Origin: Escherichia coli
Lineage (GTDB): Bacteria > Pseudomonadota > Gammaproteobacteria > Enterobacterales > Enterobacteriaceae
Strand: one strand, 5' to 3'
Length of the DNA stretch: 64,000 nucleotides
Assembly (NCBI RefSeq): GCF_044647545.1
Contig: NZ_CP172818.1
The position numbers were made by a program, and so were the translations under genes. The notes under the pieces were generated by a model, which did not search any database, was not told the DNA's origin, and saw only the letters and a list, made by a program, of their open reading frames with translations. Of this stretch, positions 22,301 through 23,352 are shown piece after piece; the first letter of the stretch is position 1, and every line of letters starts with the position of its first letter.

Positions 22301-22364
22301 GAGCTGACCCCTTGGTTACGAATACAGAGAACAAACCCCGTACAAAAGTACGGGGCATAATGCA

Positions 22365-22398
22365 ATTATAGATGGGGGGGATTTTGAGGGTTTCAACC
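22365..22398 (-). promoter_or_regulatory. sigma32 heat-shock promoter of hslVU
   Basis: Reverse strand reads ggTTGAAAccctcaaaatCCCCCCATCTat, matching sigma32 -35 TTGAAA and -10 CCCCATNT consensus; overlaps ftsN 3' end. Confidence 0.8.
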
Positions 22399-23352
22399 CC
22401 CGGCGGCGAGCCGAATGCAGTTTGTATGACCCGCCATCTTCAAGCGATTGAGGGTGCTGTCTGCGTTCTCTTTGCCTTTCACCGGGCCAATGACCACACG
22501 ATTCCAGCCATTGTTGGTGGTAATTTTTGAGTCAAAGCCTTCAAACGCCAGCTGAGCACGTACCGTCTCTGCCTGTTCCGCGCCTCTGAACGAACCGCAC
22601 TGCACCATCCAGCGGCGTTCGTCTTTTTTCTCCGCCGTCGGTTTTGGCGCGTCAGCGGCACGAGCAACTGGCGCAGCTTGCTGCGGCTTCGACTGCGCGG
22701 TGGTGTGCGCAGGGGTTTGCAGCAGATCCTGGTACGGCTGCTGAGTAGAAGCCGGTTTAGACTGGCGCGGTTGCGCCTGTACCGGTGCGGCTTGCGACGT
22801 ACGCGTCTGCTGCTGCCAGCTTTGTTCAGTTGTACGCGACTGCTGAGCCAGGCGTTGCTGCTCCGCTAATTGCTGCGCCTGACGCTGGCGCTGTAGCGTT
22901 TGCTGACGCTGTTCCGGTGTCTGCTCATTCCACGGAACTTCAACCAGCTGCGTTGGCTGCTGGCGCATATCGGCCTGCATTTGCTCAAGAAGCTGGCGTT
23001 GTTCTGGTGTTAGTTGCTCCGGCGTTTTCACTTCACCCCCGGCAGAAGGTTCTGTGGGCGCACGCACACCCGGCTGGCGACTTTCCAGCTCTTTGATGTA
23101 GCGCCAGCGTTCTTCTGGTTTCGGTGGTAGTCCGTTTCCGGTCACTTTCTGGCTTTGCAGCGTCTCGGACTCTTCTTTCTTGTGATGCGTAATGAAGTAC
23201 AGACCACCGATAAAGGTCACAAGAACGGCGGCAGCAATAGCGACCATAGCGGGAGAAACCGCAGGCAGATTTCGTTGCTTTTTCCGTGAGGTGCTCTTTT
23301 TTCGCCGCGAAGGTGCCGGTTGGCTGCGGCGTACATAATCTCGTTGTGCCAC
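22393..23352 (-). CDS. ftsN: cell-division protein FtsN (SPOR domain)
   Basis: 319-aa ORF MAQRDYVRRSQPAPSRRKKSTSRKKQRNLPAVSPAMVAIAAAVLV... with Q/P-rich linker. Confidence 0.96.
   Translation of the reverse strand: MAQRDYVRRSQPAPSRRKKSTSRKKQRNLPAVSPAMVAIAAAVLVTFIGGLYFITHHKKEESETLQSQKVTGNGLPPKPEERWRYIKELESRQPGVRAPTEPSAGGEVKTPEQLTPEQRQLLEQMQADMRQQPTQLVEVPWNEQTPEQRQQTLQRQRQAQQLAEQQRLAQQSRTTEQSWQQQTRTSQAAPVQAQPRQSKPASTQQPYQDLLQTPAHTTAQSKPQQAAPVARAADAPKPTAEKKDERRWMVQCGSFRGAEQAETVRAQLAFEGFDSKITTNNGWNRVVIGPVKGKENADSTLNRLKMAGHTNCIRLAAGG

Follow-up and report, generated by a model that had tools for sequence, protein, structure and literature searches.

The closest described systems are the hslVU promoter of Escherichia coli (hslVp, or clpQp) and the stem-loop in the leader of its mRNA. 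The promoter is RpoH-dependent according to Chuang 1993, as cited by Lien 2009 (PMC2681174), and hslVU belongs to the RpoH regulon of Nonaka 2006, as cited by heat-adaptation papers. Lien 2009 (PMC2681174) reported that a 141-bp fragment drives heat-inducible expression and that heat induction of hslVU is gone in rpoH and rpoH rpoS mutants, with no effect of rpoS; residual basal expression was seen in rpoH mutants. In the same work, a C-to-T change in the -10 element CCCCATCT brought expression down 1.7-fold and abolished heat induction. Rifampicin chase then gave the leader its role: removal of the stem destabilises hslVU mRNA, a stem of other sequence rescues it, and the hairpin is required for hslV mRNA stability under the heterologous pBAD promoter as well. 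The hslVU promoter, its sigma factor, the -10 mutant, the start site, the 5'UTR hairpin and an Rfam family for the leader are already described. Neither Lien 2009 (PMC2681174) nor the entry name of Rfam RF02401 mentions ftsN or termination.

We analysed a window of 64,000 nucleotides of E. coli chromosomal DNA, in which the genes discussed here lie on the minus strand. The RefSeq gene order, all on one strand, is priA, cytR, ftsN, hslV, hslU, menA, rraA. Many E. coli chromosomes carry the 401 nt around the promoter at 100% identity, and this 401-nt query was matched in 5425 of 5426 complete genomes. Around the locus, a window coordinate equals the MG1655 (NC_000913.3) coordinate minus 4,099,987. 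The leader of the window strain has a single T/A difference from that of MG1655, at 22330, and the MG1655 tail has one T fewer. Our reading of the locus, to which we give a probability of about 85%, is that it carries hslVp, an RpoH promoter abutting ftsN, followed by a leader hairpin that protects hslVU mRNA and by a leaky ftsN end. The features of the genes and of the promoter are as follows.

22393..23352, minus strand: ftsN coding sequence, TGA included, 319 aa with the C-terminal end ...CIRLAAGG (list of open reading frames; identical DNA is annotated as ftsN in RefSeq)
22396..22401, minus strand: codons GGG GGT of ftsN Gly318-Gly319, the last T being base 1 of the -35 hexamer
22391..22396, minus strand: -35 hexamer TTGAAA of hslVp (clpQp) (pattern search; near-invariant in the alignment; Lien 2009, PMC2681174, Fig. 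1 legend)
22393..22395, minus strand: TGA stop codon of ftsN, identical to bases 2-4 of the TTGAAA -35 hexamer
22374..22380, minus strand: run of seven C (C7) extending from the spacer into the -10 box, a mutational hot spot (sequence)
22370..22377, minus strand: -10 element CCCCATCT (sigma-32 consensus CCCCATNT), 13 nt 3' of TTGAAA
22365..22370, minus strand: TATAAT hexamer overlapping the 3' end of the -10 box, 20 bp from TTGAAA (sequence)
22313..22308, minus strand: hslV Shine-Dalgarno sequence AAGGGG (sequence)
21770..22300, minus strand: hslV (clpQ) coding sequence with GTG start (list of open reading frames and RefSeq annotation)
21760..20429, minus strand: hslU coding sequence (list of open reading frames)

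The minus strand across the end of ftsN reads GCC-GGG-GGT-TGA-AA-CCCTCAAAATCCC-CCCCATCT-ATAATTGC-A. Compared with known sigma-32 promoters, hslVp has the -35 hexamer TTGAAA, preceded by G where the consensus has C, and its -10 element CCCCATCT fits CCCCATNT. The spacer is 13 nt after TTGAAA (14 when counted from TTGAA), within the sigma-32 range of about 13-15 nt. In order to assess the motif against background, the pattern TTGAAA-N(11-16)-CCCCATNT was searched on both strands of the 64 kb; one match was found, with 0.01 expected from 100 dinucleotide shuffles, and only one of the 100 shuffles had any match of the two-part motif. The octamer CCCCATNT by itself occurs at chance level in the window (7 found, 7.1 expected), so it is the two-part spacing, together with conservation in 79 of 80 species loci, that gives the motif its significance. 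The two-part motif of hslVp is not a chance match.

The two genome-wide maps used here place the start of transcription downstream of this -10 element; both start sites given below are published positions that we re-mapped onto the window.

22361, minus strand: main hslVU start (A), MG1655 4122348 (SMRT-Cappable-seq and Thomason 2015 dRNA-seq)
22366, minus strand: minor hslVU start, MG1655 4122353 (Thomason 2015 via the TRS supplement, PMC10687069)

In the SMRT-Cappable-seq supplement, the hslV-hslU unit is 4120362..4122348 on the reverse strand in both growth conditions, and the Thomason 2015 dRNA-seq starts, as quoted in the TRS supplement (PMC10687069), are 4122348 and 4122353. The main start lies 9 nt past the T of CCCCATCT and the minor one 4 nt past it. 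With the start at 22361, the hslVU 5'UTR is 61 nt long. Lien 2009 (PMC2681174) puts the start 71 bp upstream of the GTG; at window 22371 it would fall within the -10 box, in conflict with the 61-nt UTR of both genome-wide maps, and we treat the difference between 71 bp and 61 nt as a counting discrepancy. The hslVU start site has no entry in the Cappable-seq 2016 supplement.

These results agree with part of what a first-pass annotation, made from the sequence of the window, had claimed. It had assigned the element to hslVU as a sigma32 promoter, and the motif, the mapped start and the published RpoH dependence all point the same way; the published starts at 22361 and 22366 fit the -10 element on which the annotation had staked this assignment. 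Its bounds for the promoter, 22365..22398, are good to a few bases, with 2 bases extra upstream of the -35 and 5 past the -10. It had also placed the ftsN stop codon inside the promoter, as is the case (TGA 22395..22393 being bases 2-4 of TTGAAA), and had called the arrangement native and compact, as we also find it. A functional coupling between termination of the cell-division gene and the heat-shock promoter, which it put forward as well, would be putative: our analysis turned up nothing that supports it directly.

The geometry of ftsN termination is different from what was first proposed. The first-pass annotation had embedded the terminator region of ftsN in the hslVU promoter, and we found neither a hairpin nor a T-run between the stop codon and the -10 box. 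The sole terminator-like element downstream of ftsN is a hairpin at 22356..22335 with a U-rich tail, which is located past +1, in the hslVU 5'UTR.

22335..22356, minus strand: hairpin GCCCCGUAC-UUUU-GUACGGGGU, +6..+27 of hslVU mRNA (terminator scan, folds, Rfam, covariation)
22326..22334, minus strand: U-rich tail UUGUUCUCU, covered by a TRS 3'-terminus peak that is dominant at 22326
22298..22355, minus strand: match to Rfam RF02401 ClpQY_promoter (cmscan 62.8 bits against a gathering threshold of 42, E 3e-13, model positions 1-57 of 57)

In the TRS atlas (PMC10687069), 3' termini on the minus strand form a peak at 4122313-4122321, with 4122313 as the dominant position; in the window, these are 22334..22326 and 22326. 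The peak therefore falls 1-9 nt beyond the last paired base, the dominant 3' end being 9 nt after the stem. The atlas (PMC10687069) labels it 'Primary, ftsN', with a 3'UTR of 68 nt in which reads are similarly dense as in the coding sequence; this label is purely positional, and an hslVU leader aborted at 36 nt would end at the same place. Two units with ftsN are reported by SMRT-Cappable-seq, namely cytR-ftsN and, by read-through, ftsN-hslV-hslU. The curated Term-seq list of Adams 2021 (three conditions, complete supplement) has no minus-strand 3' end at the locus, which would mean either that termination is weak or that ftsN is expressed too poorly to pass curation. For the mapping of the ftsN 3' end, which had been proposed as a check on the first annotation, the two data sets differ, with a TRS terminus at 22326 on one side and none in Adams 2021 Term-seq on the other.

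Since ftsN has no private terminator, the whole promoter is inside the 68-nt ftsN 3'UTR, the reverse of the geometry first described, and the ftsN and hslVU mRNAs probably overlap by 36 nt with one hairpin common to both. As the source of the terminus at 22326 we infer intrinsic termination of ftsN transcripts, in preference to truncated hslVU leaders or exonuclease trimming. If so, the hairpin would have a double duty.

The hairpin itself is well supported. In DNA form, the terminator scan gives it as GCCCCGTAC-TTTT-GTACGGGGT, followed by TTGTTCTCTG. It has 9 pairs, of which 6 are G-C, a loop of 4 nt and about -16.5 kcal/mol; it has thus the G+C-rich stem and the 3-8 nt loop of Rho-independent terminators. 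The U-tract after the stem, TTGTTCTCTG, has 5 T in 8 nt, which is above the scan threshold but interrupted. In the literature examined, we found no in vitro assay of factor-independent release at this hairpin. The RF02401 match extends from the hairpin through the GTG start. In an alignment of 45 sequences, 87.8% of the cells of the hairpin are paired and 8 of its 9 pairs have double changes; this level of pairing was reached by none of 500 shuffles, and slid controls were 31-61% paired. The fold of the entire hslVU leader is not unusually stable (z = -1.44), and only the local hairpin is significant. Two further Rfam matches, isrG (20 bits against 100) and anti-hemB (17.7 against 49.5), were far under threshold and were set aside as chance.

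In order to see how the arrangement behaves in relatives, we used one genome per species with HslV, which gave 80 loci, mostly of Enterobacterales with some Vibrionaceae and one Alteromonas relative. The two-part motif lies upstream of hslV in 79 of the 80. In 67 loci, nearly all of Enterobacterales, the TGA is again bases 2-4 of TTGAAA and FtsN ends in ...GG (or RG). Sixty loci have a spacer of 13 nt and 8 have one of 14 nt; A is the predicted +1 base in 64 of 68. In the -10 region, CCCCAT is near-invariant across the species alignment and TATAAT varies, being CCCCATATCTG in Pantoea and Erwinia. For the end of ftsN, 68 sequences were picked on GGTTGAAA, so that the GGTTGAAA columns could not vary; just upstream of GGTTGAAA, two bases, which include the third base of the Gly318 codon GGG, are nevertheless G in 68/68, and the G preceding them is present in 65/68. 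The third position of Gly318 has 2.0 bits, compared to 0.09-1.05 bits at the other third positions of the last 12 codons. This suggests, from the alignment, a DNA-level constraint on top of coding at the ftsN end. The G-run before TTGAA is unlike the usual CCC, which is seen in the Vibrionaceae loci. As a separate observation, a palindrome GGGGGTT-GA-AACCCCC surrounds the stop codon in Citrobacter and Enterobacter; E. coli has a weaker form of it (GGGTT/AACCC), and Serratia and Yersinia have none.

In 59 of the 68 loci, the leader hairpin starts 4-7 nt downstream of the predicted +1, and the 68 loci have 62 distinct hairpin sequences. The tail is more variable: the number of T in the 8 nt after the stem is at most 4 in 43 of the 68 loci, 5 in 16 (as in E. 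coli) and 6-7 in the remaining 9, the last group being Tatumella, Pantoea, Pectobacterium and Hafnia. By these counts the U-tail after the stem is lineage-specific. In taxa without the overlap, ftsN and the promoter are set apart by a further hairpin. Those of Photobacterium are terminators of the classical type, T-run included (for example AAAAAGGATGC...GCATCCTTTTCTTTTT); in Grimontia and Aestuariibacter, this hairpin merges by its 3' arm and T-run into the -35 box (GCCCTTGAATTT, GGCTTGAAATTT). Taxa in which ftsN has a hairpin of its own downstream (Vibrionaceae, Budvicia) have kept the leader hairpin too, which places its conserved role on the hslVU side. Termination by the leader hairpin may then be a lineage-specific extra, and the arrangement of Enterobacterales looks like a compaction with loss of the separate ftsN terminator.

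Taken together, the promoter of E. coli and of most Enterobacterales has come to lie directly against ftsN, so that the last two Gly codons and the TGA supply GGGGG-TTGAAA. In the window it consists of TTGAAA, 13 nt, CCCCATCT, 9 nt and a +1 A at 22361. Before the promoter, ftsN is without a terminator of its own. Polymerase arriving from ftsN or cytR-ftsN would cross the promoter DNA and afterwards either stop in the U-rich tail past the leader hairpin (22326) or continue into hslVU, the latter in line with the published read-through transcripts. In sigma-32 transcripts this hairpin lies 5 nt from the 5' end and shields them from decay.

The overlap might be more than a compact layout. In a fully functional form of it, the hairpin would be a leaky terminator and 3' protector of ftsN as well as the 5' protector of hslVU, and in heat shock E-sigma-32 at hslVp would block polymerases coming from ftsN. 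As the stop codon is in the -35 box, a burst of E-sigma-32 would obstruct these polymerases, and a block about 20 nt before the stop codon would leave truncated, stop-less ftsN messages. We consider this improbable. If it were true, the supply of FtsN would be tied to the heat-shock state, and selection on DNA common to both genes would account for the frozen GG-TGA ending and for the synonymous G that is invariant in Gly318.

Other explanations give the promoter or the hairpin a different weight. The hairpin at 22356..22335 could primarily be the intrinsic terminator of ftsN, with the promoter in its 3'UTR incidental and the stabilisation of hslVU a side effect. It is the top terminator-like match in the scan, a 3' terminus is mapped 9 nt past the stem, and a cytR-ftsN unit ending after ftsN is reported among the SMRT-Cappable-seq units for the locus; however, no such minus-strand 3' end is in the Term-seq list of Adams 2021, and hslV mRNA stability needs the hairpin in its own right under pBAD (Lien 2009, PMC2681174). 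Comparison of species is similarly divided, since 6-7 T follow the stem in Tatumella, Pantoea, Pectobacterium and Hafnia but the T-run is missing from most Enterobacteriaceae, and the distance from hairpin to +1 is kept even in those taxa (Vibrionaceae, Budvicia) where ftsN has a separate hairpin. A hairpin that serves ftsN first is therefore unlikely in our view.

The TTGAAA could also be paired with the TATAAT at 22370..22365 as a sigma-70 (or sigma-S) promoter, with the match of CCCCATCT to sigma-32 incidental. Taken singly the hexamers are attractive, TATAAT being a perfect -10 and TTGAAA having 5/6 of the -35 consensus, but they are 20 bp apart, where 16-18 bp is required, and a sigma-70 scan found no promoter in 21700..23500. 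Lien 2009 (PMC2681174) reported that basal expression remains in rpoH mutants, which would suit such a promoter; in the same study, expression and heat induction depend on rpoH and not on rpoS, and mutation of the putative RpoS -10 was without effect (data not shown there), against which there is a weak RpoS SELEX peak in the hslV/ftsN spacer. Across species it is CCCCAT that is near-invariant and not TATAAT. Given the 20-bp spacing, the empty scan and the published rpoH dependence, we rejected the sigma-70 reading of TTGAAA/TATAAT, and we regard a sigma-70 or sigma-S identity of the element as very improbable. Least credible of all is a chance resemblance, by which the stop overlap has no significance because any TTGAAA contains TGA. 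An in-frame overlap indeed has a one-in-three prior once the two features abut, and the -10 octamer by itself is no commoner in the window than chance predicts; for the two-part motif, though, 0.01 matches are expected, the exact register is found in 67/80 species with GGG-GGT-TGA invariant including the synonymous third position, and functional data are published (Lien 2009, PMC2681174). Conservation and the published genetics refute the chance reading.

The C7 run deserves separate attention, as two heat-adaptation studies met with deletions in it. In one of them, two populations rescued at 43 C had fixed a 1-bp deletion at -74/+19 (window 22374), under conditions where loss of hslVU function was adaptive. 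In the other, strains BM28 and BM28 lysU carry a 2-bp deletion (C7 to C5); according to the BM28 paper, the sigma-32 spacer is thereby shortened to a length found in none of 50 known promoters, and stronger sigma-70 promoters are predicted. By sequence the distance from TTGAAA to TATAAT would change from 20 bp in the wild type to 18 bp in BM28. Among the 5426 complete genomes, the C6 variant was found in 17, where homopolymer assembly errors are possible, and C5 in 2, which are the BM28 records only. The C7 run is thus a slippage-prone dial on promoter spacing that has been struck repeatedly in heat-evolution experiments.

The overlap of the ftsN stop codon with the promoter is visible in any annotated E. 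coli genome and has little weight for discovery. In the literature examined, we found no statement that the ftsN 3' end maps past the hslVU leader hairpin, which would make the hairpin possibly common to both mRNAs, that the GG-TGA ending is frozen across Enterobacterales, or that a separate ftsN-side hairpin is kept in non-overlapping relatives. These three points are refinements and not a new kind of system. They have a practical side, as synonymous recoding or C-terminal tagging of ftsN that touches the last two codons and the stop would alter the -35 region of hslVU.

Compared to known systems, the promoter in the window is hslVp / clpQp itself, with the same locus, sequence, -35, -10, start, RpoH dependence and heat induction, and we found no difference between the two. 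The leader resembles the 5' stem-loop stabilisers of ompA and papA, which Lien 2009 (PMC2681174) gave as analogues, in having a stable hairpin near the 5' end the removal of which shortens half-life; it differs in the 5 unpaired nt before the hslVU stem, and protection of the 5' end from RNase E/RppH is only putative for hslVU. With canonical Rho-independent terminators the leader hairpin shares a G+C-rich stem of 9 bp, a loop of 4 nt, a U-rich tail and, in the TRS atlas, a 3' end 9 nt on. Unlike them, it has an interrupted tail (UUGUUCUCU), lies 5 nt past a +1, passes read-through and has no U-run in most related genera. RF02401 is matched at full length, and in both the family and the window a hairpin is followed by a conserved leader up to the start codon; the 3' terminus after the hairpin of the window points to a possible second role, beyond the description of RF02401.

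The promoter of hslVU (hslVp) carries a homopolymeric run of seven C residues, which is a slippage hot spot.

22374..22380, minus strand: C7 run spanning the promoter spacer and the -10 box

A 1-bp deletion arose in this run in the 43 C rescue lines, and strain BM28 carries a 2-bp deletion in it. Among 5426 complete genomes, the C6 variant was found in 17, and the C5 variant was seen in the BM28 records only. As judged from the sequence, a run shorter by 2 bp would place TTGAAA and TATAAT 18 bp apart, creating a near-consensus sigma-70 promoter. Regarding RpoS, in vitro SELEX with RNAP-RpoS gave a weak peak of intensity 3.6 in the hslV/ftsN spacer (MG1655 position 4120330, older numbering; Shimada 2017), whereas no effect of rpoS on hslVU was found in vivo (Lien 2009).

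The latter study places the hslVU start 71 bp upstream of the GTG, corresponding to window position 22371; as stated, this start would be within the -10 box. It is also at odds with two genome-wide maps, in which the UTR is 61 nt long (start 22361).

Downstream of the leader hairpin, position 22330 (minus strand) is T in the window strain versus A in MG1655, so that the tail reads TTTGTTCTCT compared to TTTGTACTCT and contains one additional U. This difference could change termination efficiency between strains. On the plus strand, a 3' end tagged as antisense to ftsN was mapped by Term-seq to window position 22360 (MG1655 4122347, score 1381; Adams 2021), 4 nt beyond the palindromic leader hairpin as read on that strand. 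The lack of a T-run after the hairpin on the plus strand makes an exonuclease stop more probable here than a termination event.

The terminator of hslVU and mapped 3' ends (MG1655 4120358-4120376) are located in the hslU-menA gap, and read-through into menA-rraA was also found by SMRT-Cappable-seq.

20385..20378 (within 20375..20389), minus strand: CCCCATTT, in the hslU-menA gap

The first-pass annotation had supposed that the ftsN terminator is embedded in the hslVU promoter of E. coli. This arrangement really occurs in Grimontia hollisae (L081:1360-1420, GGGCAACGCAGTGCTTTGCCCTTGAATTT) and Aestuariibacter salexigens (L076:1360-1400, AAGCCGCTACAGCCTGTGGCTTGAAATTT), two loci of the HslV scan where a hairpin 3' of ftsN directly overlaps the -35 box. 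In Pectobacterium zantedeschiae (L049) and at loci L030, L040, L068 and L069, the distance between promoter and hslV is expanded by insertions or longer compound hairpins 3' of the promoter, giving UTRs of 98-173 nt versus about 60 nt. Separately, a CTCTCGC tandem repeat lies immediately upstream of hslV in a Vibrio sp. (L080).

Just upstream of the -35 box, the last base of one ftsN codon is invariant.

22399..22401, minus strand: ftsN Gly318 codon GGG, third base synonymous

This base is G in 68/68 aligned sequences, although Gly has four codons, GGG being one of them, and neighboring third positions vary freely. The G-run ahead of TTGAAA differs from the CCC found at the corresponding place ahead of TTGAA in the Vibrionaceae promoters.
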